A stretch of DNA of 64,000 bases from Candidatus Multivorans sp. (GTDB lineage Bacteria; Acidobacteriota; Thermoanaerobaculia; Multivoradales; Multivoraceae): NCBI GenBank assembly GCA_965224025.1, contig OZ245033.1, forward strand, positions 2,304,001 to 2,368,000, given 5' to 3'. Below, in pieces: positions 8,657 through 24,658 of this stretch (position 1 is the stretch's first letter; each line of letters opens with the position of its first letter). A program made the translations under genes and the position numbers. Under the pieces are notes generated by a model, which worked only from the letters and a program-made list of their open reading frames with translations, made no database searches and was not told the DNA's origin.

Positions 8657-8678
<22 letters not shown>
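8536..8678. repeat. Three direct copies of the xerD 3'-terminal sequence at 58-60 bp period
   Basis: ccgtttcaccttgcgcgcgggtgatat is exact at 8594-8620 and 8652-8678; variant ccgtcagcgggcgcgcgggtgatat at 8536-8560. All read YHPRAR-stop on the minus strand. Confidence 0.9.
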
Positions 8679-9583
<905 letters not shown>

Positions 9584-9708
9584 GTCGTATAGCCGGAAAT
9601 CTATCAGTGCGTGCCGACACTGGTTGCGCCGGCGTCCCCGCCGGCATGGGGCCGCAGCATTGCCTGGTCGCTTGTTGTAGAGAATGTCGCTAGCGCGACA
9701 CCGTTTCT

Positions 9709-9807
9709 CTGGGTGCGCGGACGTGCCATCCGTGCGCCCGATGACGGGCGCACGGACTGGTTTACGGGTGGCGCGGATCGCGCCACCCGGGATCTGGTCC
9801 GCATCCG
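9709..9807. repeat. Composite repeat: double-hairpin element B (9726-9791) inserted in the loop of a family-A hairpin
   Basis: ctgggtgcgcggac [B] tctggtccgcatccg; the uninterrupted form occurs at 48898-48928 (minus strand). Confidence 0.8.
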
Positions 9808-9858
9808 AGCGATGCCGCGAAGCGGCGAGCCCGAGTCGCGTCGCGCTACGATTCCCCG

Positions 9859-11520
9859 ATGACAAGACGAACTCTCGCACTCGCGCTTTCTCTTCTGGCG
9901 TTCGCCATCGCCGCCTGCGTCCAGCCAGCCCCTGATATCGCAACCCAACTCGACACCTGGCTTGCCGACCTCGCCGACGACGCCATGGAGGGCCGCGGCC
10001 CCGGCAGTGCCGGTGACGTCGCCGCGCGCCTGTACATCGCCGGCGCCATGGCGGACATGGGCATCGAACCGGCGGCTGGCGATGGCGGCTGGGAGCAGCC
10101 GTTCGACATCGTCGGCATCAACGCCACCGTGCCCGAGACCTGGACCTTCCACGCGAGCGGCGGCGACAGCGTCGAGTTCGCGTTCTGGGACGAGTTCATC
10201 GCCCACAGCGGCGTCCAGTCGGAGCAGGCGACGATCGAGGACGCCGAGGTGGTGTTCGTCGGCTACGGCATCCAGGCGCCGGAGTACGGCTGGGACGACT
10301 ACGGCGACGCGGATCTCGCCGGCAAGGTCCTCGTCATGCTGAACAACGATCCGGACCGGGATCCGGACCTGTTCGAGGGCGACCGCCGCCTCTACTACGG
10401 CCGCTGGACCTACAAGTACGAGAGCGCGGCGGCCCAGGGCGCGGCCGGCGCGATCATCATCCACACCACGCCGTCGGCCGGCTATCCCTTCCAGGTGGTT
10501 CAGACATCCTGGACGGGGCCCCAGTTCGAGCTGCCCGCCGAGGGCGAACCGCGCACGCAGATCAACGCCTGGCTGACGGAAGAGGCGTCCCGCCGGCTCT
10601 TCGCGCTGGCCGGCGTCGACTACGACGCGACTCTGGAGTCGGCCAGGAGCGCCGACTTCGAACCCGTGCCGCTTGGACTCTCGACGAGTCTGGCGCTCGA
10701 GAACATCGTGACCAGCGAGCAAACGGCCAATGTCCTCGGCGCCCTGCCCGGCAGCGACCCGGACTTGGCCGACGAGTGGGTCGTCTTCACGGCCCACCAC
10801 GATCACCTGGGCGTCTCGCCAGACGAGAGCCTGGAAGACCGCATCTACAACGGCGCCCTCGACAACGCGGCCGGCGTTGCCCAGGTGCTGGCGATCGCCA
10901 GCGAGCTGGCCGCTCAGGAACCCGGTCCGAGCCGCTCCGTCCTGCTCGCCTTCGTCGGCGCGGAGGAGCAGGGCCTTCTCGGCTCCGAGTACTACGCCGG
11001 CCACCCCACGGTGCCGCCCGGCAAGATGGCCGCGAACATCAACTACGACGGCGGCAACCAGTGGGGCCGCACCCGCGACGTGACCTACATCGGCTACGGC
11101 AAGTCGAGCCTCGACGCCGTGGTCGAAGCGGCCGCGGCCGACCAGGGCCGCACCGTGCTGCCCGACCAGTTTCCGGACCGCGGCTACTTCTACCGTTCGG
11201 ACCAGTTGAACTTCGCCCGCATCGGCGTGCCGGCGATCTACCTCGACAACGGCACCGACTTCATCGACCGGCCGGAGGGTTGGGGCCACGAGCAGTTGGA
11301 TGCCTGGACGGACAACATCTACCACCAGGTGTCCGACGAGTACCAGCCGATGAACGAGGAAGGCGAGGGCTGGAACCTCGACGGCATGGTCGAAGACGTC
11401 GAACTCGGCCTCGCCTGCGCCCGCGCCATTGCCGAGAACCCCGAACTCCCGGCCTGGAACCCCGGCGACGAGTTCGAGGCCGCGCGGCTGGCGGCGCTCG
11501 CCGCCGTGGCGGGCGAGTAG
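9859..11520 (+). CDS. M28 family metallopeptidase lipoprotein (PA-domain insert)
   Basis: Lipobox-like AIAAC, EGRGPG, TAHHDHLG, NGALDNAAG, AEEQGLLGS, RSDQ and YHQVSDE zinc-ligand motifs. Confidence 0.93.
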   Translation: MTRRTLALALSLLAFAIAACVQPAPDIATQLDTWLADLADDAMEGRGPGSAGDVAARLYIAGAMADMGIEPAAGDGGWEQPFDIVGINATVPETWTFHASGGDSVEFAFWDEFIAHSGVQSEQATIEDAEVVFVGYGIQAPEYGWDDYGDADLAGKVLVMLNNDPDRDPDLFEGDRRLYYGRWTYKYESAAAQGAAGAIIIHTTPSAGYPFQVVQTSWTGPQFELPAEGEPRTQINAWLTEEASRRLFALAGVDYDATLESARSADFEPVPLGLSTSLALENIVTSEQTANVLGALPGSDPDLADEWVVFTAHHDHLGVSPDESLEDRIYNGALDNAAGVAQVLAIASELAAQEPGPSRSVLLAFVGAEEQGLLGSEYYAGHPTVPPGKMAANINYDGGNQWGRTRDVTYIGYGKSSLDAVVEAAAADQGRTVLPDQFPDRGYFYRSDQLNFARIGVPAIYLDNGTDFIDRPEGWGHEQLDAWTDNIYHQVSDEYQPMNEEGEGWNLDGMVEDVELGLACARAIAENPELPAWNPGDEFEAARLAALAAVAGE

Positions 11521-11922: not shown

Positions 11923-12654
11923 TCAGCGGCATATCGCCGCGGGATCCGTCGGCAGGCGTGGGCCGCCGACCTGCAGCCTCTCCATCGCCGCGTACTTGGC
12001 GTTCACGTACTCCGTGAGCAGGTCCAGGACGCCGGCAGGCGCGTTCGCTGCAACCAGCGGCAGTTTCGGATTGTCGAGGAAGTTCTGGAGAAAGCCGGTC
12101 TGCGTGAGGCGGACCTCGGACAGGTTGCCGGTATGAGCGTCGCGTTCGACCCGACTGACCAGATACTCGCGCCCGCGGAGGAAGAAGTACTCCTCGTTTC
12201 TCAACAGGCCGCTCCTTGCGGTCGCCGAGCGCCATCCGGATTCGAGCAGCCGTCTCCGGCCTGAACCGGAGTAGATGAAGACCAACGCTCCGCCCGACTG
12301 CCAGATTTTGGAGAAGGCGGAATTGTAGTCGTAGCCGTTCTCGGTGATGCGCGCGTCATCGCAGGCGCGCCGGTAGAGCGCTTCCTGGTCGCCCGCCAGC
12401 AGCTCGAGGCGAGCCACCAGGGCCTGGCGTTCCTCTTCCGGGAACAGCATCAACACGGTCGCTTCGCCGCCTCCAGGAACGGCCATGGGTGTAGCCCACA
12501 CAGTCACCTGCGTTTGCTTGACCGTCCCCCGGTATTCGCCGGCCAGTCCTCGGTAGGCGTCCGGCGCCGTTGGCTGCGCGCTGACGACAACGGCCGCCGG
12601 CCAGAGCAGCGCGAGCAACAAGGCTCCATGTAGATGACAGGTGTTTCTCGTCAT
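11923..12654 (-). CDS. Hypothetical exported protein
   Basis: Signal-peptide-like HGALLLALLWPAAVVVSAQ after a probable start MTRNT (12654); no recognisable domain. Confidence 0.65.
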   Translation of the reverse strand: MTRNTCHLHGALLLALLWPAAVVVSAQPTAPDAYRGLAGEYRGTVKQTQVTVWATPMAVPGGGEATVLMLFPEEERQALVARLELLAGDQEALYRRACDDARITENGYDYNSAFSKIWQSGGALVFIYSGSGRRRLLESGWRSATARSGLLRNEEYFFLRGREYLVSRVERDAHTGNLSEVRLTQTGFLQNFLDNPKLPLVAANAPAGVLDLLTEYVNAKYAAMERLQVGGPRLPTDPAAICR

Positions 12655-12717
12655 GCGTATCGAGGGCCGCAGGCGGTTGAACCCCGAAGCACGAACCGCG
12701 ACCGACAATCTCCAGCG

Positions 12718-13320
12718 TCAACCGAGGGCTTCGGGATTCCGGAACTTCACATGGTCCACCAGGCGGTCGAAGAACCGGTCGAAGTCCCCCGGGTCCGACC
12801 GCACCACGGGCCCTTCCGTGAAGTCGACCTCGGCGAGCACGTGGCCTTCGAACGTTCCGGTGGCCCAAGCCGGCGGCGCTCGATGGGACAGTTGGTCCAA
12901 CCGCGATTTCAGTAGACCGAGCCACGTCGAGTCGTGTTTCTTCGACCAAGAGTCCTGACTGCGGTCGAAGACCATGATGTACCCGATGACGATCTCGGGT
13001 GAGTGCAACTGGGCGTTGGCCACTTCGCCCATGAGGTCGTCAATCCGATTCGGGACGGTGCCCGGGATGTTCTTGAGCAGTGACTTGAGGGAGAGCCCCA
13101 GCCGGGCCTTTCCGGCGTGCTCCCAAGCGACATCCCACTGCTTCACCCGGCCGAAGCCCTGGACCGCTACTTCCGCGCCGACGCCAGAAACGCCGCGTTT
13201 CTCGAGCTCCTGAACGCAGAAGTCCGCGAGGCCGGAGAGCCTGGCCGGGGAAGTCGTCTTCTGTTCGACAACGGCGACGCGATAGAGATGCTCTATGGCC
13301 TCTTGAACGGTAACCGCCAA
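12718..13320 (-). CDS. Putative type II restriction endonuclease (PD-(D/E)XK, XhoI/PaeR7I-like)
   Basis: KQWDVAW...LSLKS...NRIDDLMGE...IGYIMVFD resembles the XhoI-type core; directly downstream of a DNA MTase. Confidence 0.7.
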   Translation of the reverse strand: MAVTVQEAIEHLYRVAVVEQKTTSPARLSGLADFCVQELEKRGVSGVGAEVAVQGFGRVKQWDVAWEHAGKARLGLSLKSLLKNIPGTVPNRIDDLMGEVANAQLHSPEIVIGYIMVFDRSQDSWSKKHDSTWLGLLKSRLDQLSHRAPPAWATGTFEGHVLAEVDFTEGPVVRSDPGDFDRFFDRLVDHVKFRNPEALG

Positions 13321-13352
13321 CGCCTAGTCCTTAGGTCGGATCGCCTTCGAAC

Positions 13353-14372
13353 TCAGCGAACTGCCGACACACTGGAATCTGGAGTGTGCGGCACGACTTC
13401 GACCTGTTTGAACATGTCGGCTGCCTGAGTCGACATTCGCGCCACGGAAGCCTTGAAGTACTCCGGCTCCACCTCGACGCCGACACTGTTTCGGCCCCAC
13501 ATGGCCGCAGCCGACTGAGTCGTGGCGGTGCCCATGAAGGGGTCGAACACGGTGTCGCCCGCGAAACTGAACATCCGGATCAGCCGCTCGGCGATCTCGA
13601 GGGGGTACGGGGCGGGATGGTGCCGGGTGGAGGCTCCCCCGAGTCCTTCCCAGACTTGGCGGAACCACTTGTGGTGAAGGTCGGCCGGAATCAGGCTCAG
13701 CAGTTTGGCCGCGGATGTGGGCCGGCGGTAGCCGCCCGGCTTCCGCTGCATGAGGACGAACTCGATGTCGTTCTTGATTACGGCGTTCGGTTCATAGGGC
13801 TTGCCCAGGAACGCGCCCTTGCCGCCCTGTACTTCGTAGGCGGCGTTGGCGATCTTGTGCCAGATGATCGGGGCCAGATTGTCGAAGCCCACGCTGCGGC
13901 AGCGCTCCTGGATCGAAGCGTGCAGCGGCACGACCGTGTGGCGCCCGTGCCGGCGCCGCGAAAGGCAGACATCGCCGACCACACAGACCAGCCGTCCGCC
14001 GGGAACGAGAGCGTCGTAGCAGCGGCGCCAGACCTTGTCGAGCTGATCCAGGAAGTCCTCGTAGTCCGCGACCCACCCCAACTGGCCGTCGGAAGTCGGG
14101 TACTCCTTCAGGGTCCAGTAGGGCGGCGATGTGACCACGAGGTGGATCGACTCCGGCGCCAGCGGCGGCACGGTGCGGGAGTCGCCCAGGAACAGCTCGT
14201 GGCGGGTGGGCACCTCCGCGAGCAGCGCCTCGATGCGGGCCGTGGCGCTCGGATCCCTGGCTAGTTTGGGTAAATCGCGGCGCGGATTCTCCAAGGATCT
14301 CCAGCGCTGCGGCACCAGATCAAGGAGCGGGTCGGGCGGGTTCCGAGTCGCGTGGGCAGATACGGAACTCAT
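13353..14372 (-). CDS. Site-specific DNA methyltransferase, beta-class N4/N6 (SPPY, likely N4-C)
   Basis: Motif IV VTSPPY precedes HPAPYP and motif I DPFMGTATT; start ATG 14372 (MSSVS). Confidence 0.9.
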   Translation of the reverse strand: MSSVSAHATRNPPDPLLDLVPQRWRSLENPRRDLPKLARDPSATARIEALLAEVPTRHELFLGDSRTVPPLAPESIHLVVTSPPYWTLKEYPTSDGQLGWVADYEDFLDQLDKVWRRCYDALVPGGRLVCVVGDVCLSRRRHGRHTVVPLHASIQERCRSVGFDNLAPIIWHKIANAAYEVQGGKGAFLGKPYEPNAVIKNDIEFVLMQRKPGGYRRPTSAAKLLSLIPADLHHKWFRQVWEGLGGASTRHHPAPYPLEIAERLIRMFSFAGDTVFDPFMGTATTQSAAAMWGRNSVGVEVEPEYFKASVARMSTQAADMFKQVEVVPHTPDSSVSAVR

Positions 14373-14451
14373 GCCGGCCAGAGTACCACTTGGGCAGGTC
14401 CTCGTTCCGCCCGTCACCCGCCTCAGACGGTTGCGTAGACGCGCTGCCAGT

Positions 14452-14876
14452 TCAGGTCGAGGATCGCCCGAACGGCCGACTCGGAGTAGCCGCGATCGTC
14501 GCATCGTGCCCGCACCACACCAGTCCCGACACAAGCTTCGGCAGGAAACGGGTCGATTTAGGCGGAAGCAGATCGCCGTCCTCGGTGGCGAGCGCGAACT
14601 GCTTCGGCGTCATAGGCGGCAGGAAGACGCCGGCGGTGATCTCAGAGCGCTCGAGCAGCGCGACGATACCGTCCGGGTCGGCTTCGTAGGTGATGCTTCC
14701 GTCGGTGGCGGACGTAGGCGGTACGCCGGCGGTCTTCAGCAGGTGGTGGTGAATCAAGGCCGCCGGGAGGGCGGTCTTCCGGCCGGGCATGTCGGCGGGC
14801 GCGGCCGCCGCGTCGAGGGTCCAGAGTTCAGGCACCGCGTCGCCCTGAGACAAGACGGCGAGGGCGGGCTGCGGCG
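14452..14876 (-). pseudogene. Orphan 3' fragment of a DUF1015 gene (diverged duplicate of about 23352-23746)
   Basis: Translates to ELWTLD...HHHLL...LLPPKSTRFLPKLVSGLVWCGHDA, roughly 80% identical by eye to the C-terminus of 23352..24608; no 5' part. Confidence 0.88.
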
Positions 14877-15295: not shown

Positions 15296-15745
15296 GTGCC
15301 GGACACCTTCGACAGCGCGACGCGTTCGCGAATCATGGCGAGAGTCCAGAGTCGGAACACCGGGCCGGAGTTGATCCTTCGCCGTGCGCTCCACGCCCGC
15401 GGACTGCGGTACAAACTCCACGATTCCGCGCTTCCGGGCCGACCGGACCTCGTCTTCCCCCGCTTCGGAGCGGTCTGCTTCGTACACGGCTGCTTCTGGC
15501 ATCGCCATGAGGGCTGTCGTCGCACCACGACACCGGCGACCAACAGGAGCTCCTGGGAGCGGAAGTTCGCGGCTAATGTCCGGCGCGACCGGAACAACCG
15601 AACCGCGCTGCTTGCGGCCGGCTGGCGCGTCGGGGTCATCTGGGAGTGCGTCTTGCGCCCCAAGAAGCGCTCGGAGGAGGTGGCAGCGAGCGTTGAGCTA
15701 TGGCTGAAGGGACAGCGCAAGGACTTCATTGCCGGTCGTCAGTAG
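15296..15745 (+). CDS. vsr: Very short patch repair endonuclease
   Basis: PDTFDSATRSRIMARVQSRNTGPE, LPGRPDLVF, FVHGCFWHRH, NVRRD, GWRVGVIWEC; GTG start 15296. Confidence 0.95.
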   Translation: MPDTFDSATRSRIMARVQSRNTGPELILRRALHARGLRYKLHDSALPGRPDLVFPRFGAVCFVHGCFWHRHEGCRRTTTPATNRSSWERKFAANVRRDRNNRTALLAAGWRVGVIWECVLRPKKRSEEVAASVELWLKGQRKDFIAGRQ

Positions 15746-15869
15746 GCTGGCGGGTCATGGTCGTCTGCGGGCGCGTAGCGAAGGCCGGGGACGCGGTTGT
15801 GGAGCAGATTGCGCCGCACCTCGGCCCGGACGACGGGGAGTCTCGTGGACCGTGCTTCTGCGAGATCGG

Positions 15870-17507
15870 TCAGCTAGCCCGTTGCCCGATGCTCTTGGAG
15901 CGCCGGAGCCACTCCGACTGGTTGAGGGGAAGGCGTGACATTCTCTCGGCAATCGTCTGCGCTATCGACTGGGCGAACTCCGGCTTGAGTTCTCCCACCC
16001 AACGGTACTTTCCGTCGCCGCACTCTCCGTCGCCGGATTCCTGGAAGATGAATTCCCTCTCGGGCCCATCGCGGTTTGCGAGCACGCATTGCTCCACGGG
16101 GTCCGGTGTGAAGTACTTCATAAGCCATTCCGACGGATTCGCGGATATCGTCATGCGCCGAAGTTGGTCCGCTCCGACCGGCACGACGACCTGCAGGGTC
16201 CTGCTCTTGGGTTCAGAAAGGGGGACAAACAGGAAGGATGAATCCTGAGTCAAACGGATGCTGTCGCACCTCGGTGTAACACATAGGAGCATCCTGTCGT
16301 CGTTTCCGATCCGGCGGACGACCGTTCCCATTGACAATTGTCGCGAAGTGGGGTCGAGCACCTGGCGAAAACTCATCGTAGATGCGAAGAGACGGTCGAG
16401 CTCGCGGACGTCGCCGTCGCCTCCGGCTAGTCCATGAGAGATAAGGTCCCACTTCTTCTTCCCCTTCTTCGTCCGTAGGCATGCTGGCGGTTTCTCCTCA
16501 AGTCCATGGGTCAGCATTTCCCGGACCTCGGGTACGGTAGCCTTGTGGTTTTGGTCGAATACCACCTGATCATCGGCGAATCGGTCCGTCAACCAATGCT
16601 TAATCGCTTCGATTCCGGCGGGACGTCTTTTGCTGATCGTGTCGTCCATGATTCCGTGGAGCTCGCTGGCGATCTGTTCCACCATGTGCTGTTCTGAATC
16701 CGAGGGTTGCCGAAGAAGGGCGCGGTGCGCCAGAAAGGCGGGATCAAGTTCGCGGCCGAAGCGGTTCAACACCCGATACACGTTCTCCCTGACGGCGGTG
16801 AGTGCGGTCAGGACCAGGCCGGGCAGGAGTCCCTGGGCCATTTCGGCGATATCGGCGATAAGCCGATCGGCCAGCTCTTGTTCGTTTACGACCGTGTTCG
16901 AGCCGTCGGCCGGGGAACCAGGCTTCCCGTACACGACGATCCGGCACGCCCCGAACTCGATGGGATTGCGGTCGTCGGTTGTGCGTACCTCTCCATGAGG
17001 TAGGTCGAGGCCGTCGAGGCAGGCTGCGATCCGTGTGCGGATGTCCTGCTGGTCGGGCTCGCCGGTGTAGAAGGCGATCAGGCGAAGTCGCCCCGGCTGG
17101 TCTGTCTGCAGGATGCGTTCCAGCAGCGGCAGGGCATTCGCGCCGCTCTCTCGGCTCAGTCGCCAGTCCAAAATGAGGATGTCAGCACGAGCGACGGCTT
17201 TGGCAAGCGCCTCAACATCGCCTTGGCCTTGCTGGGGCGCTACTACGCCGCAGACCATTCCTTGGCGGGCAAACGACCATGTGATCGGCTCAACGTTCAG
17301 GGGCCGAGACGGATGATCCTGCGGGTCGGCCGTTGTCGGCCGGCTTGAAGAATGCTGGTCGGGTGGGGCCAGGTTGCCGTGGACCAGTGGACCAGTTGGG
17401 GCGGAGAGTTCGTCGTCAACGACCACCGCCGTCAGCAGGAAACGCCGGACGATCTGGCGGCAGTGCTCGCCAAGTCCGTTCGTCTCCCCGGAACTACGGG
17501 GCGCCAT
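15870..17507 (-). CDS. Atypical response-regulator receiver protein with large uncharacterised C-terminal effector region
   Basis: REC motifs: AVVVDDE, ADILILDW (acceptor Asp), IAFYTGE, VVYGK; C-terminal LLCVTPRCD motif; no HTH output domain; start overlaps the kinase stop by 14 nt. Confidence 0.82.
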   Translation of the reverse strand: MAPRSSGETNGLGEHCRQIVRRFLLTAVVVDDELSAPTGPLVHGNLAPPDQHSSSRPTTADPQDHPSRPLNVEPITWSFARQGMVCGVVAPQQGQGDVEALAKAVARADILILDWRLSRESGANALPLLERILQTDQPGRLRLIAFYTGEPDQQDIRTRIAACLDGLDLPHGEVRTTDDRNPIEFGACRIVVYGKPGSPADGSNTVVNEQELADRLIADIAEMAQGLLPGLVLTALTAVRENVYRVLNRFGRELDPAFLAHRALLRQPSDSEQHMVEQIASELHGIMDDTISKRRPAGIEAIKHWLTDRFADDQVVFDQNHKATVPEVREMLTHGLEEKPPACLRTKKGKKKWDLISHGLAGGDGDVRELDRLFASTMSFRQVLDPTSRQLSMGTVVRRIGNDDRMLLCVTPRCDSIRLTQDSSFLFVPLSEPKSRTLQVVVPVGADQLRRMTISANPSEWLMKYFTPDPVEQCVLANRDGPEREFIFQESGDGECGDGKYRWVGELKPEFAQSIAQTIAERMSRLPLNQSEWLRRSKSIGQRAS

Positions 17508-19223
17508 CGGTGTCGTCCTTCCGTTCCTTGATCGGTGCGATCGCGAACGTCGTGCTCCACTCGGGCCCGCGCTCCTCGAGCGTCAGGTCATAACCAACTT
17601 CACGCAGCGTTGCGCGCGCGATGTGCAAACCCATCCCGCGTCCCTCCGGCTTCCTAGTGAACCCGATGTCGAAGATGTCGTCCCGGTCCCGGGCGTGGAT
17701 CCCGGGTCCGGTGTCTGAGACGCGGAAGGTCTTCCCGGACGCGTCGAGCCGGATTCGGCGCTCGAGGCGCTCGTTTAGGCCCGAGAGCCAGTAGATCGCA
17801 TTGTCCACGAGATTTATGAACACGGGATAAAAGGAAGAGGGATAGCCCCGCACTGCGGCGCTCTTGAAGGAGTCGGATTGGGCCAGTTCTATGTTGTGCC
17901 TGGCCAGTCGCTGACCGAAGAGGTTGATCAGGAACTCGTGGATCTCCCACCCGCGAATGTCCACGGTCTTGCGGTAGAGCCTCCTTTGGAGCGGCGTGAA
18001 GAGCGTCAGATACGCGTCGAGGTGATCGAAGCTGCCGCGAATCCTTTGGTATAGCGACATCAGTTCGCGATTCGCATCGGCCCAGGCCTTAAGGCCGCGC
18101 AGTCCCGATCGGACCGAACGGATAGCGGCGCCGAACTCGTGGCTTATTATTTCGATCGCCATGCCGAGCTGAGCGAGCTGAAGGTCGGCGGCCGTCTGTT
18201 CTTGGAGCGTGACGTTGCTCTGTTCCACTGCCGCAAGTTGATCGAGAAGGGAGGAATCGCTCCTCAAGTCGATGGCTTCCAGCTGCGAGCGAACGGAGTC
18301 GAGAGTTCTCTTTGCGTTCTCCAGGGCCTCGCTGATCGGAGCTTCCAGGTCGGAACGTGCGGCAATCAGCCGCTGGTCGTCCAGACCGGCTAGGTCGCGT
18401 CGGCCGAAATCGGCCATTCCGGCGCGAATGGCATCCTCGACGTCTCGCACGCACCGGGCCGCTAGGTCGCGCACATCCTCCGAGATGCTCTTGGCTCTCG
18501 CGTTGACGTCGTGGCGACTGGCCTCCGTCTCTCTTCTAGCCAGCCGAACGACTTCATTGAGAACCGATTCCATGCGTTCTCTGGCACCAACGTCAACGCC
18601 CGCCTTCGTCACCTCCTTCGTGACGACGCTCTCAATCGAGTCCCGGATGTCCCGTATGCCGTCGGAGAGGGCCTGGAACGCTTCCTGATAGTCGCCCCAC
18701 TCCCGCTGCAAGGCCCGACTCAATCCGATGCGCGGCTTGGAAACCCGGTACATGGCCTCCAGCTTCCCGAGATCTCTCCTGGCGTTCCGTTCTATCGCGA
18801 AGATCCGTCTGGCCGCCCTGCCGCGATCTGCATCGAGGCTCGCCTCCCTGACGCGCTCCTCGGTCGCCAAGCCCAGTTCCATGACGCTGTCAAGGGGCCT
18901 GTCCGTCTCCATTCGCTGGAAGAAAGCGGTCAGGTCGTTCTTGAATTGGGCGCGTTTGGCCGTGGCCTTCGTGGCACGGGCACGCCTGTGTCGTTCGGTC
19001 TCGTCCAACTCTCGCTTGCGGGTGTTGAACCGGTCGCCGTACACTCCCTCCTCTCGGAAGAAGTCGGCGGCCACCTGAACTAGGAAGCTCTTCAGAATAC
19101 TCCTCAACTCACGATAGGCCCTGTTCTCGCGAAAGCCCTCTCGCCCGGCTTTCTCGCGAAGACGTCCGTTGTTGGCGGAGTCGACTTCGACCACTCCGAA
19201 CATCTGCCGGTACGAAAAATAGT

Positions 19224-20721
19224 GGCTCTTTTGAATTGCGAGTGGGTCAAGCGGTGTGCGGGTTGAGCGTGTGGAAGTCGAGTTTGCCGGCGATGAGGAA
19301 GAAGGCGATGCGTATGGTGTCGAATCGCTTGTAGCCTCTGGCCTTGCGTTTGGCGGACTGGAAGAGTCCGTTGAGGGCTTCGAGGAAGCCGTTGGTCTGC
19401 CGGGTTCGCGCCCAGGCAGCGATCGCTTGCAGGTGCTTTCGGATGGTGCGGGCGACGGCCTTCATGGGTTCGACCTTGGAGCGGTTCACGTTGGTGCACC
19501 ACTGATGGAGCATTCGCAGCACGACGTTGATCTGCTTGCGGTTGAGAATTTCGCGGAGTTGCTCCCGATAGAGCCAGGCGCGTGCGGTGCGTCGGCTGGC
19601 GACCCTCTTGACGAAGCGGTCGAGGTCGGCCCGTTGGGCCGGCGTCAGGGAGTCGCGGTTCTTGAGCAGCGTCCAGCGCAGGCCCTTCAGCGACGGATCG
19701 AGGCGCTGTTCGAGGCGCCGGGTCTCGTCCACCGCCTTCGAGGCCAGGGCCATGACGTGGAACTTGTCGAGGGTCACCTCGGCGTTGGGGAGATTCTCGG
19801 CGACGCCCTTGAGGAAGGCGGCCGACATGTCGATGGACGCCCGGCTGATCGCGGCGGGATCGCCGCCGCGCCTTTGCAGATCGTCGGCGAACTCCTCGAT
19901 CGTGCCGGACTTGCGTCCCTCGGCGAGGAACACCACGCGCCGGCGCTCGCTGTCGGCGACCGCGGTCACGTAGTCGTGCCCCTTGGCGCGGGAAGTCTCG
20001 TCAATGGCCACGTGGCGCAGTTCGGAGAGGTCGTCCCGGTCGACCGCCAGCTCGACGTAGCGCTTGCAGATCGCGTGCACCCGATGCCACGACACCCCGG
20101 TCAACCGGGCCACCGCAGCGAAGGTCATGTCTCGGCACATGGCCAGAATCAAGGCTTCGAACAGCAGCGTGAAGCCGGACAATCTGCCCGACCAGGGCGG
20201 AGTCACCAACGCCACCCGCTGGTCGGGGAGTCGCACACGGGGCACTCGCGCCTCGAGCAGGCACTCGTGCTGGAAGAAGTTGAGGTGCCGATAGCGCTTG
20301 ATCTGCGTGTCGTGCACCGGATGAGAACCGCCGTCCCCCTCGTGGGCGAATCGGCTGCCCTTCCTGAAGTCGATCCGTATCGTCAACCGACGCTCCCTCT
20401 CACAGAAGTCCACGCCGTCAACGAACCACGGCGCCGACACGCCCAGCGCTCTCGCGAACAATTCCCTCTGCATCTCTCGTCCTCCTTCAGTCGGAACAGG
20501 AGAGACGAGTCTTGCTCATTCCGATCGCCCGCGACTACCGCCGCCACCCGAAATCGCCGCGAACGCCCTCCCCACCGGACAGCTTGCGCCCTCGCCGCTA
20601 CCGGTCTTCCGCAGATTCCACAGCCCGACGGCGGCGGCTACGGCGGCGGAGGCCGCTATCCCAAGACCCCCTCAGCATCTGCACTCGCCCGCGCCCTACC
20701 CACTCGCAACTCGAAAGAGGC
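19224..20721 (-). mobile_element. ISL3 family insertion sequence, 1498 bp
   Basis: Imperfect 24-bp IRs ggctcttttgaattgcgagtgggt / acccactcgcaactcgaaagaggc (3 mismatches); 8-bp TSD AAAATAGT at 19216-19223 and 20722-20729. Confidence 0.95.
19247..20473 (-). CDS. ISL3 family transposase
   Basis: RHLNFFQHECLLEARVPRV, IDETS..KGHDYVT, IDMSAAF, DKFHV, TNGFLEALNGLFQSAKRKARGY; intact 408 aa. Confidence 0.96.
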   Translation of the reverse strand: MQRELFARALGVSAPWFVDGVDFCERERRLTIRIDFRKGSRFAHEGDGGSHPVHDTQIKRYRHLNFFQHECLLEARVPRVRLPDQRVALVTPPWSGRLSGFTLLFEALILAMCRDMTFAAVARLTGVSWHRVHAICKRYVELAVDRDDLSELRHVAIDETSRAKGHDYVTAVADSERRRVVFLAEGRKSGTIEEFADDLQRRGGDPAAISRASIDMSAAFLKGVAENLPNAEVTLDKFHVMALASKAVDETRRLEQRLDPSLKGLRWTLLKNRDSLTPAQRADLDRFVKRVASRRTARAWLYREQLREILNRKQINVVLRMLHQWCTNVNRSKVEPMKAVARTIRKHLQAIAAWARTRQTNGFLEALNGLFQSAKRKARGYKRFDTIRIAFFLIAGKLDFHTLNPHTA

Positions 20722-21980
20722 AAAATAGTAGTAGGAGGCGCTCTTGGTCCGCCGCAGCTCGATCTCCAACCAATCGTAGTCCGTGTTTCCGTACGGCTGA
20801 ATGCGTACGCCGTCCCGATAGATGTAGAGGCCCCCGATGCGTTTCGTCTTCTCCAACATGCGACCATGCTCCGCCGGAGGAAGAGTGGAATGCCTGGCTA
20901 CACCCTCGATTGCGGCAAACGTGATATCGAACGGGCCGCACGCCGTGGGATGCCCTTGTCCTTCGCTCCAGTTGATTACATGGTCGGTCTTGGTTTCGCC
21001 GTAGACGGATACGCTGCCCTTGAACTGGCCATACCGGTCGAATCTCCCCGCGATTTGGTGATCTGCGTTGTCGTAATCGTAGGGAGTGAAGAATTCGTGT
21101 TCGCCGATCAGGTCTTCGCATGTGCCGTCCACTCGGTGATCCCGAAAGGCGGTGCGGATGACGGGTTCCGCGCGGGCCACAAACGACGGAATGGTAAACC
21201 CCAGCAGCGCCTTGTGCAGCGGTGCCGCTGAACCGGAAGTCAGATCCCCCGCCAGGTCGTAGGCCAGGTTGTCAGATGTAGGCATAAGGTAGAAGTGTGT
21301 ACCGTGACCTCCGTCGAGGAGCGTAGGCTCGTCCATGTTTTCGGCTGTCTCGAGAGGATCCACCGCAAACGCTCCAAGATCGCCCTCTATCCGCGCCCAC
21401 TCCTCTGCGTCCATGTGTTTCTGAAGTCGGGCGTTCCTGCCGAGGAATGACTCCACCATGCCGGCTACGTCCTCGGCGTCGGGCAGGCTGCCTCCGGGGA
21501 AGGTGCGAAGGGGAATCCGGATGTCCTGAAGATTCAGTCCAGGACATTGGAAGACCCGCCAGTTCAGAAAGGCGGCCGTCAGGTCGGACAAGACGCCATC
21601 GCGAAGAGCCCGCGTGAGCACCAGCACTTGAGGGGCGATCGTGGCGATGGCCAGGCGACCTATTCCCTTCTCCCCCAAGATGGGCCTTGCGCCTCGCTGC
21701 GGCTTGCTGCGTCGACGCTCCGCGCGTTTCCGCTGGATGCTGGTCTCCGTCGCTATGGTGAGCCATCGGTCTATGAACTCGTCGGTCTGCATGCCGAAGC
21801 CGTCGTCGCGCAGCACGAACAGCCTGTCGCGACGGTAGTAGTCAACTTCCACGCGCCCGGCGTCCGCATCGTGCGCGTTCTTGAACAACTCGCTGATCGC
21901 GGTGGGGATGCCGGCGATCTGCTGCCTCCCCAGCATGTCCAGCGTCCTGGCCCGGGCCTTGAAGCTAACCTCCGCCGACA

Positions 21981-23090
21981 TCAGGTCACGCGTGCCTCGG
22001 CCAGGTGTCTGGTGACGTGCTGTCCCACGAGGTTCGTCAACAGCGAGGGTACCGCGTTCCCAATCTGCCGAGCCATCGAGTTCAGGCTGCCGCAGAGGTG
22101 AAAATCCATCGGAAATGTCTGAAGACACGCGGCTTCCCTGACGCTGATCGCGCGATCCTGCTCGGGGTGTCCGAAGCGGCCGTTGGAGTAGCTGATGCAA
22201 CGCGTCGTGAGCCCGGAAGCGGGCCGGTCCCACGACATGCGACCGTAGACGTCGGTGGCGCCGGCAATCTTCTTGTGGCATTCAAGACGAAGGGCCTTCG
22301 GCCAATCCCGGTGCCCGCCGCCCTCGGGGGTCGCCCGGATGCGCTCCAGATTGAGCTCGAACAGCCGGGCGGCGCGGTGGTCAGAGATTGCCGGGTGGGT
22401 CTCGCCGGCCTCAATCCGGGGCAGGTCGCCTATCCAGTCGCGCACGGTGGCGAATTCGGGGTTGGCCTTGCCCGGCCCGTGCGTCTCGGGAGGGAGATCC
22501 ACGGGTCCGTGGCGACTGGCGAGGAGCAGGAATCTACGGCGACCCTGCGGCACTCCATACTGCTTCAGGGGCACTGAAGTGCACGTCGGCTTGGGATAGC
22601 CGGCCTCCTCCAATCCCTGAAGGAACTCGCTGAGCGGTTCAGATTCGGGGCACACATTCTGAATCCCCGGGACGTTCTCCACGAAGACGATGTCGGGCTC
22701 GCACCTTCGGATGAAGCGCAGGAGTTCGAGAAGCAACGGCACCCGTTCGTCCTCGTTGGGCTTGGGACGGCTGGTGTTCTGCTTGGTGAACGGCTGGCAG
22801 GGCGCGCATCCGCAGAATAGAATGCGATGCGGTCGGTGCTTGACCACCAGCTCGTGGGCGGAGTCTTCATCCACATGCCGAATGTCTCCGCGTTCGAAGA
22901 CGGCCGCCGGGAGATTCCGCCGGAAGGTTCGCTCGGCGTCGGTGTCACAATCGAGGCCGAACACGATGTCCATTCCGGCGTCCTGGAAGCCGCGGCTGGC
23001 CCCGCCGCAACCGGAGAAGAAGTCGAACACCTTCACTCGCGGGCAGGGCGCGGCTGCGCCGTTCGTGTTGGGATCGCCGAGGGGATTCAT
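21981..23090 (-). CDS. dcm: DNA (cytosine-5)-methyltransferase
   Basis: DFFSGCGG (I), APCQPF (IV), ENVPG (VI), YGVPQGRRR (VIII), RQIGNAVP (X); TGA overlaps the ATG of the ATPase/kinase gene (TGATG). Start uncertain. Confidence 0.95.
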   Translation of the reverse strand: MNPLGDPNTNGAAAPCPRVKVFDFFSGCGGASRGFQDAGMDIVFGLDCDTDAERTFRRNLPAAVFERGDIRHVDEDSAHELVVKHRPHRILFCGCAPCQPFTKQNTSRPKPNEDERVPLLLELLRFIRRCEPDIVFVENVPGIQNVCPESEPLSEFLQGLEEAGYPKPTCTSVPLKQYGVPQGRRRFLLLASRHGPVDLPPETHGPGKANPEFATVRDWIGDLPRIEAGETHPAISDHRAARLFELNLERIRATPEGGGHRDWPKALRLECHKKIAGATDVYGRMSWDRPASGLTTRCISYSNGRFGHPEQDRAISVREAACLQTFPMDFHLCGSLNSMARQIGNAVPSLLTNLVGQHVTRHLAEARVT

Positions 23091-23351: not shown

Positions 23352-24608
23352 CTAACCCGCCACCACCTTCGCGTCATGCCCGCACCAAACCAATCCCGAC
23401 ACGAGCTTCGGCAGGAACCGGGTCGACTTCGGCGGCAGCAGGTCTCCGTCCTCGGTGGCGAGCACGAACTGTGTCGGTGTCATCGGGGGCAGGAAGACGC
23501 CGACGGTGGCCTCGGAGTTCTCCAGCAGGGCGACGATGTCATGCGGGTCGGCCTCGTAGGCGATGCTGCCGTCGGTGGCGGATACGATCGGCACGCCGGC
23601 GGTCGTCAGCAGGTGGTGGTGGAGCAGGGAGGCCGGCAGGTCGGCCTTGCGGCCCGGCATGTCGTCCGGGGCGGCCGCGGGGTCGAGGGTCCAGAGTTCG
23701 GGCGATGCGTCACCTTGGAACCAGACGGCGAGAGCCGGCTGCGGCGCGGCGGCGACGCGGGCCGCGATCTCGGCGCCGCCGGTTGCTTCCAGGGGTTCGC
23801 GGTGCGCCGGCAGCGCGGACATCGCGTCGCGGTTCAGCGGCACGCGGATGCCCCGGTGGACGGGGTCGATCCGGAGGTTCGCGGAGGCGAGGCTGGTGAG
23901 GACGACCATCTTGCAGGCCGCCGCGGTGCCGCTCTTTGCGCCCTCCTCGGCGGCGTAGGTCTGGGCCACCTGGGTGCGGTGGTGGCCGTCGGCGATCGCG
24001 GCGCGGGCGCCTTCGAGCGCCGCGCCGTAGGCGGCGATGCGCTCGGGGTCGGTGATCCGGAAGAGCGTGTGGACATCGCCGGTCCAGGGGTCCGCGTGGC
24101 TGACCAGGGCGGCGCCGGCGCCTCCGTTGCAGTCTTCGATCAGCAGGCGTTCGAAGGCGCCGTCGTCTTCGGCGAGGTAGAACACCGGCTCGATGTCGAT
24201 CTGCGTGAGCCGCAGCAGGGCCAGACGCTCGGCGATCGACTTCGCCACCGTTTGCTCGTGCGGCCAGAGGTCGCCTTCGCGTCCCGGCTCGACGCCGACG
24301 AGGGCGCACAGGCCGAGGCGGCTTGCACCGTCGGGTTGGGTGATCGCGTACGGGTAGAGTGAGGGAGTCTCGTCGCGCTCGACGACTCCGTTCTCCAGCC
24401 ACTCCCGGTGGAGCGCGGCCGAGTGCTCGTGCGGCGTCTCGCCGTCACGCGCCACGGGCTTCGTCACCCGGGAGAACTGGTGCGGCGACTGGGCGTGCAG
24501 GCGGTCGCGCAGGGCCTCGTCGATCTGATCGAACGGCGGCGCAGCCTGAGGTGCGGCATCGAGCCTGGCGGAGTTGTAGCGGTAGCCCTGAAAGGCGTAG
24601 AGCTTCAT
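23352..24608 (-). CDS. DUF1015 family protein
   Basis: APPFDQI, PHEQT, IADGHHR and PPKSTRFLPKLVSGL motifs; start MKLYAF at 24608. Confidence 0.88.
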   Translation of the reverse strand: MKLYAFQGYRYNSARLDAAPQAAPPFDQIDEALRDRLHAQSPHQFSRVTKPVARDGETPHEHSAALHREWLENGVVERDETPSLYPYAITQPDGASRLGLCALVGVEPGREGDLWPHEQTVAKSIAERLALLRLTQIDIEPVFYLAEDDGAFERLLIEDCNGGAGAALVSHADPWTGDVHTLFRITDPERIAAYGAALEGARAAIADGHHRTQVAQTYAAEEGAKSGTAAACKMVVLTSLASANLRIDPVHRGIRVPLNRDAMSALPAHREPLEATGGAEIAARVAAAPQPALAVWFQGDASPELWTLDPAAAPDDMPGRKADLPASLLHHHLLTTAGVPIVSATDGSIAYEADPHDIVALLENSEATVGVFLPPMTPTQFVLATEDGDLLPPKSTRFLPKLVSGLVWCGHDAKVVAG

Positions 24609-24658
24609 TGCGGTTCCTCGTCGGTGTTGGAGTCGGCCCCCCATTCTGGAGGATTACT

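Follow-up and report, generated by a model that had tools for sequence, protein, structure and literature searches.

A dcm–kinase–receiver–vsr island of Candidatus Multivorans sp. with a predicted toxin-fold receiver output and a kinase gene split by an ISL3 element

The window analysed here, 64,000 nucleotides of contig OZ245033.1 of Candidatus Multivorans sp. (positions 2,304,001 to 2,368,000), carries dcm, histidine kinase and receiver genes on the minus strand together with a convergent vsr gene. This arrangement, noticed in the initial annotation, was confirmed, and the gene coordinates, overlaps and all of the motifs quoted there were found as given. The locus comprises the following features.

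14489-14788, no strand assigned: left island boundary, displaced 3' end of a DUF1015 gene, direct repeat of 23359-23658
15296-15745, plus strand: vsr, very-short-patch repair endonuclease (Pfam Vsr, 2.4e-28; NCBIfam TIGR00632, 4.2e-36, 123.8 bits, above the cut-off of 97.85; PADLOC Vsr, 9.2e-31)
15870-17507, minus strand: receiver-effector protein, 545 aa (PF19192)
17494-19223, minus strand: split histidine kinase, C-terminal part, residues 421-993 of the whole (PF19191, PF02518)
19224-20721, minus strand: ISL3-family insertion sequence, 1498 bp, with 25-nt inverted ends and an 8-bp duplication (DDE_Tnp_ISL3)
20722-21981, minus strand: split histidine kinase, N-terminal part, residues 1-420 (HATPase_c_3)
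21981-23090, minus strand: dcm, C5 cytosine DNA methyltransferase, at the head of the operon (Pfam DNA_methylase, PF00145, 2.1e-43; TIGR00675, 116.8 bits, above the cut-off of 100.65)
23359-23658, no strand assigned: right island boundary, repeat copy forming the intact DUF1015 gene's 3' end

The dcm frame starts with an ATG at 23090, is open as far as 23141 and contains the motifs FSGCGG, PCQPF, ENV, QGRRR and GNAVP. Its stop codon has one base in common with the kinase start (TGATG), and the end of the kinase gene runs 14 nt into the receiver gene. The cassette is a horizontally acquired island of approximately 8.9 kb, bounded by 300-nt direct repeats that are 82% identical and spaced 8870 apart. 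The right copy belongs to the intact neighbouring DUF1015 gene (23352-24644, minus strand), and the ORF at 14452-14853 on the left matches the DUF1015 3' end in three related loci (L004, L005 and L040).

The kinase gene is split by the ISL3 element, whose transposase ORF (19247-20473) matched Pfam DDE_Tnp_ISL3 at 7.6e-63 and NCBIfam transpos_ISL3 at 3.8e-91, and which is flanked by the 8-bp target duplication AAAATAGT at 19216-19223 and 20722-20729. Removal of the element and one duplicate gave an open kinase frame of 993 codons. The same length is found in the intact orthologue at L004:7033-10014, to which the N-terminal part is 90% identical (residues 1-419) and the C-terminal part 85% identical (residues 421-991), both without gaps. 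Moreover, the empty insertion site was found in the public run X5, and the kinase allele is uninterrupted both there and in an orthologue.

The reconstructed kinase is a soluble protein of 993 aa composed of a paraMORC-type GHKL head, a coiled coil, and DHp and CA domains, in agreement with the two GHKL domains and the lack of a transmembrane segment first proposed for it. The N half, encoding the paraMORC/MutL-like ATPase head and a middle region, matched HATPase_c_3 (5e-13), and the C half, with the coiled-coil region, the DHp domain carrying the H-box and the catalytic domain, matched HEF_HK (PF19191, 8.8e-28) and HATPase_c (PF02518, 1.2e-13). All of the head and kinase motifs were found (ELFKNAHDADA, DDGFGM, GEKGIGRLA, SHEF, NLVDNA, DTGPG and GRGMGL), with the H, N, G1 and G2 motifs among them. 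Among PDB entries, the C half resembled the DHp-CA region of ZraS (1.2e-7) and the N half the GHKL domains of HtpG and MutL (E 0.004-0.2). The head was closest to the NCBIfam BbrUII/HgiDII restriction-enzyme family NF050001 (1.2e-21), a match covering only the N-terminal positions 8-115 of 659 with a score far below the family cut-off. No membrane-like segment was detected in the kinase (highest 19-residue Kyte-Doolittle mean, 1.37), and neither in the kinase nor in the receiver was a region recognised that would read DNA sequence or methylation.

The receiver protein consists of a REC domain (~23-225), a helical domain (~205-385), a domain with a predicted MazF/Kid/CcdB fold (~389-527) and two terminal helices. 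The REC domain matched Response_reg_2 (PF19192, 5e-34, residues 23-198) and gave fold matches of Z 10-11 on the predicted model; the AlphaFold models had pLDDT values of 89.2 and 93.1. Its phosphorylation pocket is intact, as originally read from the DDE and ILDW motifs: D31, D114 and K195 are invariant and D32 and T148 near-invariant in 80 sequences with identities down to 27%. Conservation extends over the full length of the protein, output included, in 1518 clusters formed at 50% identity.

The output region, for which a PemK-like fold had been guessed and an HTH doubted, is predicted to consist of the helical domain followed by a toxin-fold domain instead of an HTH. In a wide fold search of 48,161 chains, the top 12 matches were all MazF, Kid, CcdB or CptN (Z 9.3-6.1, 87-101 aligned residues, nearly whole targets covered) and the next match had Z 5.7; in a second comparison, 39 MazF/Kid-family entries scored Z 7.0-9.3, followed by Z 5.0. 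The superpositions had an rmsd of 2.4-3.3 A over 86-105 residues, Foldseek returned probabilities of 0.96-1.0 but E values of 6e-3 or weaker, and the solved relatives of the fold among the matches listed are all toxins; nothing else notable was matched. This likeness is one of predicted fold alone, without sequence similarity to such toxins. A profile search of the PDB with the output region gave no match, a PemK/CcdB Pfam match was absent from all 80 receiver-family members even at E 10, and hhalign against 25 PemK proteins gave a probability of 0.2. The columns equated, by strand order only, with Arg29 and Thr52 of E. coli MazF, which we take to be its catalytic positions, are variable. The output module has conserved residues of its own (D255, E282 and C414 invariant; H261, R262, C409, P412, D415 and R418 near-invariant), and the toxin-fold domain its own invariant motif, C-x2-P-x-C-D-S-x-R; LLCVTPRCD was found as annotated. 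No HTH or wHTH family appeared in the Pfam, NCBIfam, PADLOC or fold searches, although failure to appear in them does not prove that none is there; the helical domain gave no fold match, which leaves room for a DNA-binding role.

The association with the methylase and the lack of a restriction enzyme, both suggested from this single locus, were borne out by the survey of homologue neighbourhoods. The dcm, kinase and receiver genes are collinear in 71 of the 73 related loci with at least 4.3 kb upstream, drawn from many phyla, which puts the arrangement well outside chance expectation; the sequence identities of the three genes drop in parallel across the loci, and Vsr is found no more than 10 kb away in 43 of the 73. 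The flanking ORFs of 79 loci revealed no further conserved neighbour of the module, whether a restriction nuclease or anything else: the commonest family is type I HsdM (13/79), and HNH_2 occurs in 4/79.

Novelty cannot be claimed for the gene set, as the initial annotation had already allowed; the architecture, the methylase link and the toxin-like fold, the last as a prediction, stood. The cassette is a member of the published module of HEF_HK (PF19191) and Response_reg_2 (PF19192), Pfam families whose cut-offs are exceeded here, and its association with type II C5-methylases, Vsr and paraMORC ATPases has been described by computation (PMC8011034; Bellieny-Rabelo, Pretorius & Moleleki 2021). 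The kinase has the "group 1" architecture of that paper (HATPase_c_3 + HEF_HK + HATPase_c), and the adjoining receiver gene, upstream C5-methylase, downstream Vsr and soluble kinase are common to both, without a difference in kind. In that paper the C-terminal 350 aa of the receiver carry no domain, whereas here they are modelled as a helical and a MazF/CcdB-fold domain; the island boundaries are a further addition to the 2021 description, and the IS-split kinase is a peculiarity of the present copy.

Related systems differ in the placement of the effector. The BbrUII/HgiDII family, the GHKL-nuclease paraMORC3/VcSduA (Shedu), which acts in anti-phage defence (PMC12137116), and the paraMORC-HEPN fusions (PMC3710099, PMC2292703) resemble the cassette in their GHKL head, BbrUII/HgiDII most closely, and in cytosine methylase and Vsr partners; in them head and effector share one polypeptide, whereas a DHp-CA core takes the effector's place here and the putative effector sits on a separate receiver protein. 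Ambrosia of Pseudomonas aeruginosa (AbrR-AbrA-AbrB-AbrC-AbrD), which blocks phages and requires the REC Asp (bioRxiv 10.1101/2025.09.30.679545), likewise combines a methylase, a HATPase-type histidine kinase and a REC protein in one cluster. Compared by description only, it comprises an XRE regulator, a methylase of the N6-adenine type, a REC protein reported to carry a wHTH and a separate HNH nuclease, whereas the methylase of the present cassette is of the C5 type, XRE and HNH are both missing, and the REC protein has a predicted toxin-fold output. With the endoribonucleases MazF, PemK and Kid and the gyrase poison CcdB, the receiver shares the predicted fold at ~389-527 (Z up to 9.3), but it has no sequence similarity to them, no antitoxin gene and its own motif, and the putative toxin-fold domain is fused behind the REC and helical domains. 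Detocs is a two-component system of phage defence whose effector, fused to the receiver, is turned on through a His-Asp relay; its sensor and effector domains differ from those of the cassette, and it is not known to have a methylase partner.

The best reading of the cassette, which we put at somewhat below even odds (roughly 0.45), is a toxin-like receiver effector gated by a phosphorelay. Dcm would mark host DNA, with Vsr repairing the T:G mismatches arising from 5-methylcytosine, and the GHKL head, dimerising with ATP like MORC/MutL-type ATPases, would report the state of the DNA, either unmarked incoming DNA or a failure of methylation. The signal would run through the coiled coil, reach the H-box histidine and pass on to Asp114 of the receiver, whose phosphorylation may release the C-terminal module as an effector, most likely a toxin against RNA or, like CcdB, against gyrase, that halts growth or the invader. 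The REC domain would thus play the antitoxin's role and the relay that of the restriction enzyme. We infer both the signal sensed by the MORC-like head and the toxicity of the output. Published analogues for the toxin-effector reading, with GHKL heads in control of nucleic-acid toxins in R-M settings, are the paraMORC-HEPN fusions (PMC3710099), the GHKL-nuclease paraMORC3/VcSduA (PMC12137116) and the phage-blocking Ambrosia cluster.

The kinase and receiver might instead be regulatory: as a two-component system they would respond to infection by switching the transcription of the methylase, or of some restriction enzyme whose gene lies elsewhere. Signalling that controls R-M systems is proposed, as speculation, in the Discussion of PMC8011034, and the Ambrosia preprint favours transcriptional control, with cluster reporter genes induced upon infection and AbrC said to have a wHTH (bioRxiv 10.1101/2025.09.30.679545); the helical domain at ~205-385, having no assigned fold, would suit such a role. 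We nevertheless consider transcriptional switching improbable: the searches above returned no HTH or wHTH family, with the reservation already made, the sole recognisable output fold is the one predicted to match the MazF/CcdB toxins, and no regulated restriction partner is evident because no nuclease gene is conserved in the 79 loci.

Equally unlikely, in our estimation, is post-segregational killing by a mobile cassette rather than defence, in which loss or dilution of the methylase would leave host DNA unmarked and the kinase would then let the toxin-like receiver kill the cell. The module forms an island complete in itself and flanked by direct repeats, it is patchily distributed (3/401 genomes of the phylum, 0/9 of the genus), the methylase is always the first gene of the operon, and selfish behaviour is a recognised trait of R-M systems (see PMC8011034). 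Its rarity on plasmids (2/72,556 records), its absence from 50,697 phage records and its neighbours, often defence genes themselves (type I R-M and Schlafen/AlbA_2, for instance), argue against addiction; loss of the kinase with retention of the methylase is allowed by addiction too and does not discriminate. The C-terminal module could also be a MazF-like-barrel binding or adaptor domain that recruits or regulates, for example, Dcm, Vsr or a repair or replication protein, thereby tuning methylation or repair. Variable MazF catalytic positions, the missing sequence similarity to toxins, the frequent proximity of Vsr and the toleration of an intact receiver gene beside a broken kinase gene are consistent with an adaptor, which we likewise hold to be a poor bet, since every solved relative of the fold among the matches listed is a toxin and the strong invariance of polar and Cys residues points to a site for catalysis or metal.

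In the source genome the phosphorelay is dead, because the kinase gene is split, while dcm, vsr and the receiver gene remain open. The broken kinase fits the discarding of a costly system and fits equally a system without consequence. The responsible ISL3 element is recently active: at least 12 full-length, 100% identical places, including the copy in the kinase gene, were counted in the genome (21 matches).

Only vsr, the receiver gene, the kinase gene with its insertion sequence (IS) and dcm lie between two direct repeats in the window, and the cassette that they form is a real, well-delimited example of a known, widespread kind of system. Its features are located as follows.

21981-23090 (open frame to 23141), minus strand: dcm, C5 cytosine methyltransferase (Pfam DNA_methylase PF00145, 2.1e-43; TIGR00675 above cut-off)
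20722-21981, minus strand: N-terminal piece of the kinase gene (Pfam HATPase_c_3, 5e-13)
19224-20721 (1498 bp): ISL3-family IS, transposase at 19247-20473 (DDE_Tnp_ISL3, Pfam 7.6e-63; NCBIfam 3.8e-91)
17494-19223, minus strand: C-terminal piece of the kinase gene (Pfam HEF_HK, 8.8e-28; HATPase_c, 1.2e-13)
15870-17507, minus strand: receiver gene, 545 codons (Pfam Response_reg_2, 5e-34, residues 23-198)
15296-15745, convergent with the operon: vsr (Pfam Vsr, 2.4e-28)

One base is shared by the stop codon of dcm and the start codon of the kinase gene (TGATG), and the kinase stop overlaps the receiver start by 14 nt. Response_reg_2 scored 118.4 bits on the receiver against the Pfam cut-off of 27, and the matches of the kinase halves scored 97 bits for HEF_HK, 51.9 for HATPase_c and 49.7 for HATPase_c_3. 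The kinase carries the motifs of a classical two-component protein, namely the SHEF H-box and the N, G1 and G2 boxes NLVDNA, DTGPG and GRGMGL, and its C-terminal half matched the DHp-CA part of solved histidine kinases (ZraS, 1.2e-7). The pocket of the receiver is likewise intact, with D31, D114 and K195 invariant and D32 and T148 present in at least 90% of 80 aligned sequences. A simple hydropathy scan revealed no membrane-like stretch in any protein of the cassette, the highest 19-residue means of the kinase halves being 1.29 and 1.17, in keeping with the soluble kinase of the HEF_HK module. The genes had been described correctly in the initial annotation, and every motif quoted there was found.

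The Pfam families found in the cassette were defined by Bellieny-Rabelo, Pretorius and Moleleki (2021; PMC8011034). In that paper, the two genes of the module are linked in 91.6% of 644 regions, C5-methylases usually lie upstream and Vsr often directly downstream, the kinase is soluble, with HATPase_c_3 + HEF_HK + HATPase_c as its commonest architecture (174 of 222 sequences), and kinship with the paraMORC ATPases is proposed; no domain of the receiver is found there beyond the REC part, and a role in the control of restriction-modification (R-M) is offered as speculation. The cassette belongs to this HEF_HK/Response_reg_2 module, as the receiver, the group 1 kinase, the adjacency of the genes and the upstream C5-methylase all fit, and the novelty sensed by the initial annotation is forestalled by this earlier publication. 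What is added to the known module in the present study is a predicted fold for the output (C-terminal) part of the receiver and the boundaries of an island, not a new kind of system. The literature searched under the family names gave no mechanism and nothing further on the C5-methylase form, for which no bench test was found.

The island is lower in GC content than its nearest flanks (0.59-0.66 versus 0.67-0.73 in 1-kb windows) and is framed by a 300-nt direct repeat (14489-14788 and 23359-23658, 82% identical), the right copy of which is the 3' end of an intact DUF1015 gene and the left copy a displaced remnant. The cassette occupies the same site, after ClpB and DUF1015, in its three closest loci, L004, L005 and L040 (ClpB 88-94% identical), and the duplicated DUF1015 fragment is kept in L004. 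The arrangement of the repeats and the common site in these relatives thus indicate that the cassette entered at the 3' end of DUF1015, bringing or rebuilding that end. No integrase was found between the 300-nt repeats, and the cassette could have moved by recombination between alleles or with the help of an integrase supplied in trans. The XerC/D-type tyrosine recombinase encoded at 8657-9943 (minus strand), beyond an M28 peptidase gene, has a SAM-like domain at its N terminus; it is probably chromosomal and not part of the island, since it has the same place in L005 and L040.

A second modification module is located just outside the island, at 11923-14534 on the minus strand. Its first gene encodes a type II N4/N6 methyltransferase (13353-14534; PF01555, 7.4e-33). 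The two ORFs behind it, at 12718-13320 and 11923-12708, gave no Pfam, NCBIfam or PADLOC match and could represent an unrecognised restriction enzyme. The orthologous site of L004 lacks the N4/N6 methylase and the first ORF and retains the last ORF alone.

Receiver relatives numbered 360 at E <= 0.001 among 7998 candidates scored, and PF19192 was the sole Pfam family in each of the best 120 of them. The family is large and spans many phyla: in a library of 50%-identity representatives, 1518 clusters matched the receiver at E <= 0.001 and 687 at 1e-30, and among the matches listed the cluster representatives align over its full length. At the same time, the module is rare within any single lineage, being present in three of 401 sampled genomes of the phylum (the window's own counted) and in none of nine of the genus. 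It was found in two of 72,556 plasmid records and in none of 50,697 phage records.

The constancy of the gene set was evaluated in a scan of one genome per species with a close alignment of 18 sequences, which gave 92 confirmed relatives; the best 80 of these, representing 79 distinct loci in many phyla, were kept and searched with the proteins of the window. After six loci with less than 4.3 kb upstream (L031, L048, L054, L061, L066 and L070) were set aside, dcm, the N- and C-terminal parts of the kinase and the receiver were collinear on one strand in 71 of the remaining 73. The two exceptions both lack dcm: L007 retains the receiver, vsr and a 57-codon kinase remnant, and the kinase of L047 is missing its GHKL head. 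Shortened or interrupted receiver genes occur in L027, L040, L071 and L079. Of the 79 loci, 68 have both kinase parts in a single open frame, and the 11 others include short contigs and artefacts of frame tracing. A vsr gene lies no more than 10 kb away in 43 of the 73 loci; it is upstream on the same strand in 23 of them, downstream and convergent (the arrangement of the window) in 11, and downstream on the same strand in 9. The identities of methylase, kinase and receiver drop in parallel from locus to locus, as expected of a unit.

Among 630 flanking ORFs, the most frequent family occurred in 13 of the 79 loci, and no nuclease family was conserved.

Families in the flanks of the module (loci out of 79)
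Type I HsdM: 13
Type I HsdS: 11
Type I HsdR: 8
N6_N4 methylases: 6
HNH_2: 4
Schlafen/AlbA_2 protein: 4
Transposase: 4

These counts define a conserved core of three genes, often accompanied by vsr, with defence-type neighbours and no restriction enzyme of its own. The island itself also carries a methyltransferase without a cognate restriction endonuclease, which distinguishes it from type II R-M systems. Across the 64 intact loci, even the part of the methylase that recognises the target is well conserved, and it therefore yields no usable signal of covariation between methylase and kinase.

The whole receiver was modelled with AlphaFold from the 80-sequence alignment (pLDDT 89.2, pTM 0.86). 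Because the Foldseek list for the whole protein was swamped by REC matches and noise, the C-terminal part (residues 205-545) was folded separately (pLDDT 93.1). Many response regulators matched the REC domain (residues 23-225) at Z 10-11. The helical domain that follows (about 205-385) had no fold match over the noise level typical of helices and is left without an assigned fold; no helix-turn-helix (HTH) family was found in the receiver by sequence search, and none appeared in the fold lists.

The remaining beta-rich domain (about residues 389-527) is predicted to have the MazF/PemK/Kid/CcdB fold. When the domain was compared with 48,161 chains without filtering, the best 12 matches were all to MazF, Kid, CcdB or the type III toxin CptN (Z 9.3 to 6.1, 87-101 residues aligned, rmsd 2.5-4.0 A), followed by the next unrelated row at 5.7, and the rescored Foldseek list gave 39 entries of the MazF/Kid family at Z 7.0-9.3 and then 5.0. 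Foldseek itself assigned these matches probabilities of 0.96-1.0, yet with weak E-values of 6e-3 and up. A PemK-like output, which the initial annotation had guessed, is thereby borne out at the level of a predicted fold, and in these models the likeness to the toxins ends at that level. A profile search of PDB sequences with the receiver gave no hits, neither PF02452 (PemK_toxin) nor the CcdB family of Pfam was detected in any of the 80 receiver members, even at E 10, and profile-profile comparison (hhalign) with 25 PemK proteins from related genomes gave a probability of 0.2. Receiver columns 404/405 and 431, equated by strand order only with Arg29 and Thr52, which we take to be the catalytic positions of E. 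coli MazF, are variable. No additional gene that could encode an adjacent antitoxin is conserved next to the module in the 79 loci.

Other positions of the 80-sequence alignment are strongly conserved: D255 and E282 (invariant) with H261 and R262 (near-invariant) in the helical domain; G394, C414 and F466 (invariant) with C409, P412, D415, R418 and W503 (near-invariant) in the beta-rich domain; and R525, E532, W533 and R535 (near-invariant) in the C-terminal helices. Such conservation, read from the alignment, points to a possible family-specific catalytic or metal-binding site. A PD-(D/E)xK nuclease, formed by P412-x-C-D415 with E506-x-K508, was considered and dropped: 90 residues separate the two motifs, neither E506 nor K508 is invariant, and the fold lists contain MazF-type barrels only. 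In the ESM Atlas, residues 385-545 retrieved unnamed clusters only, with scores (0.89-0.91) within the chance range. Stand-alone forms of the output module were limited to nine short, fragment-like proteins in a search among close relatives.

The N-terminal GHKL head of the kinase gave a HATPase_c_3 match with intact motifs, as in the MORC/paraMORC ATPases, and shows a weak likeness to HtpG and MutL. The annotated family to which it comes closest is that of the BbrUII/HgiDII-type restriction enzymes, whose head it resembles (NCBIfam match of 1.2e-21, limited to the first 115 of the 659 positions and far under the family cut-off; PADLOC REase_II, 3.2e-11). This likeness suggests that the ancestor may have been a GHKL-nuclease restriction enzyme with a cytosine methylase and Vsr, the nuclease part of which was replaced by a kinase core. 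Published accounts describe paraMORC families with nuclease domains (PMC2292703), paraMORC-HEPN fusions compared to the anticodon nucleases PrrC and RloC (PMC3710099) and the GHKL-nuclease Shedu protein VcSduA, which provides phage protection (PMC12137116); these are parallels in which GHKL heads are fused with nucleic-acid toxins in R-M settings.

A tested system with a related theme is Ambrosia, an anti-phage cluster of Pseudomonas aeruginosa (bioRxiv 10.1101/2025.09.30.679545), described as five genes that encode an XRE regulator and an N6 methylase together with a HATPase kinase, a REC protein to which a winged HTH (wHTH) is attributed, and an HNH nuclease. Phage blocking by the cluster requires each of the five genes as well as the REC aspartate. 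Compared by description, Ambrosia and the cassette have the combination of methylase, kinase and REC protein in common, whereas the cassette has a C5 methylase, no XRE or HNH gene and an output with a predicted toxin fold in place of the wHTH.

The best-supported reading of the cassette, to which we give a probability of about 0.45, is a phosphorelay that would start from the GHKL head, as the sensor of a feature of DNA or of its methylation, and would end at the toxin-fold module of the receiver as the effector. The analysis shows the family membership, the constancy of the three-gene unit, the lack of a conserved nuclease partner, the intact relay residues, the predicted fold and the IS break; the signal, the phosphotransfer, the toxicity and the biological role are inferred. 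Transcriptional control by the kinase and receiver, which the authors of Ambrosia favour for their own system, appears improbable here; sequence and fold searches gave no HTH in the receiver, in which the helical domain has no fold assigned and could still bind DNA. Equally hard to favour is an output that acts as a non-toxic adaptor, with which the variable columns at the presumed MazF positions and the likeness limited to the fold would be compatible; the conserved Cys, Asp and Arg residues would sit better with an active site. An addiction module is given a similarly low likelihood: the self-contained cassette between direct repeats and its patchy spread would suit it, and its rarity on plasmids, the lack of matches in the phage records and the defence-type neighbours speak against it.

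The phosphorelay with a toxin-fold effector may be extended to a restriction-free, methylation-keyed immune or addiction system, which as a joint claim is rather unlikely. The MORC-type ATPase would clamp DNA and read the presence of the cassette's own 5mC mark, and the result would be relayed by His-Asp phosphotransfer to an output domain that would make up a new branch within the MazF/CcdB fold; this branch would have its own Cys/Asp/Arg (+ Asp/His/Glu) active or metal site and would be restrained by the receiver domain instead of an antitoxin. If the output is indeed a phosphorylation-gated toxin, a methylation mark would be tied to a response at the level of the cell with no restriction enzyme involved, and this would be a new regulatory principle for the MazF/CcdB fold.

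Whatever its role, the module is disabled in the window's genome by the ISL3 element in the kinase gene. The element has 25-nt inverted ends and is flanked on both sides by the 8-bp target duplication AAAATAGT, and removal of the IS and one duplicate leaves the kinase frame open over 993 codons. The nearest intact orthologue (L004:7033-10014, 993 aa, with all three Pfam domains) matches both halves of the kinase free of gaps (90% identity over residues 1-419 and 85% over 421-991), so the insertion is the sole lesion of the gene. The genome has 21 matches to the element, several of them truncated and 12 full-length and 100% identical (the kinase copy counted), which points to a recent transposition burst of an element that is active, or was so recently. 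In the public sequencing run X1, probably the source run, the flanks of the IS have a depth of about 30 and the element about 300. In run X5, from a separate study, a 2604-nt contig (depth 40) connects 19215 to 20722 and represents the empty site, with 9 differing positions from the window in about 2 kb. The IS-broken allele of the window and the intact, approximately 99.5% identical allele of run X5 form a natural experimental pair. A variant of the module on the Pseudomonas syringae plasmid NZ_ON146836.1 (6736-8259) was considered as a candidate Ambrosia-like form: its receiver is short (268 aa; PF19192, 2e-31), and the next gene encodes a 157-aa protein of its own that has no Pfam match. 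The kinase of this variant is an 82-aa remnant adjoining an IS5 transposase, so that here, too, an insertion sequence has cost the module its kinase.
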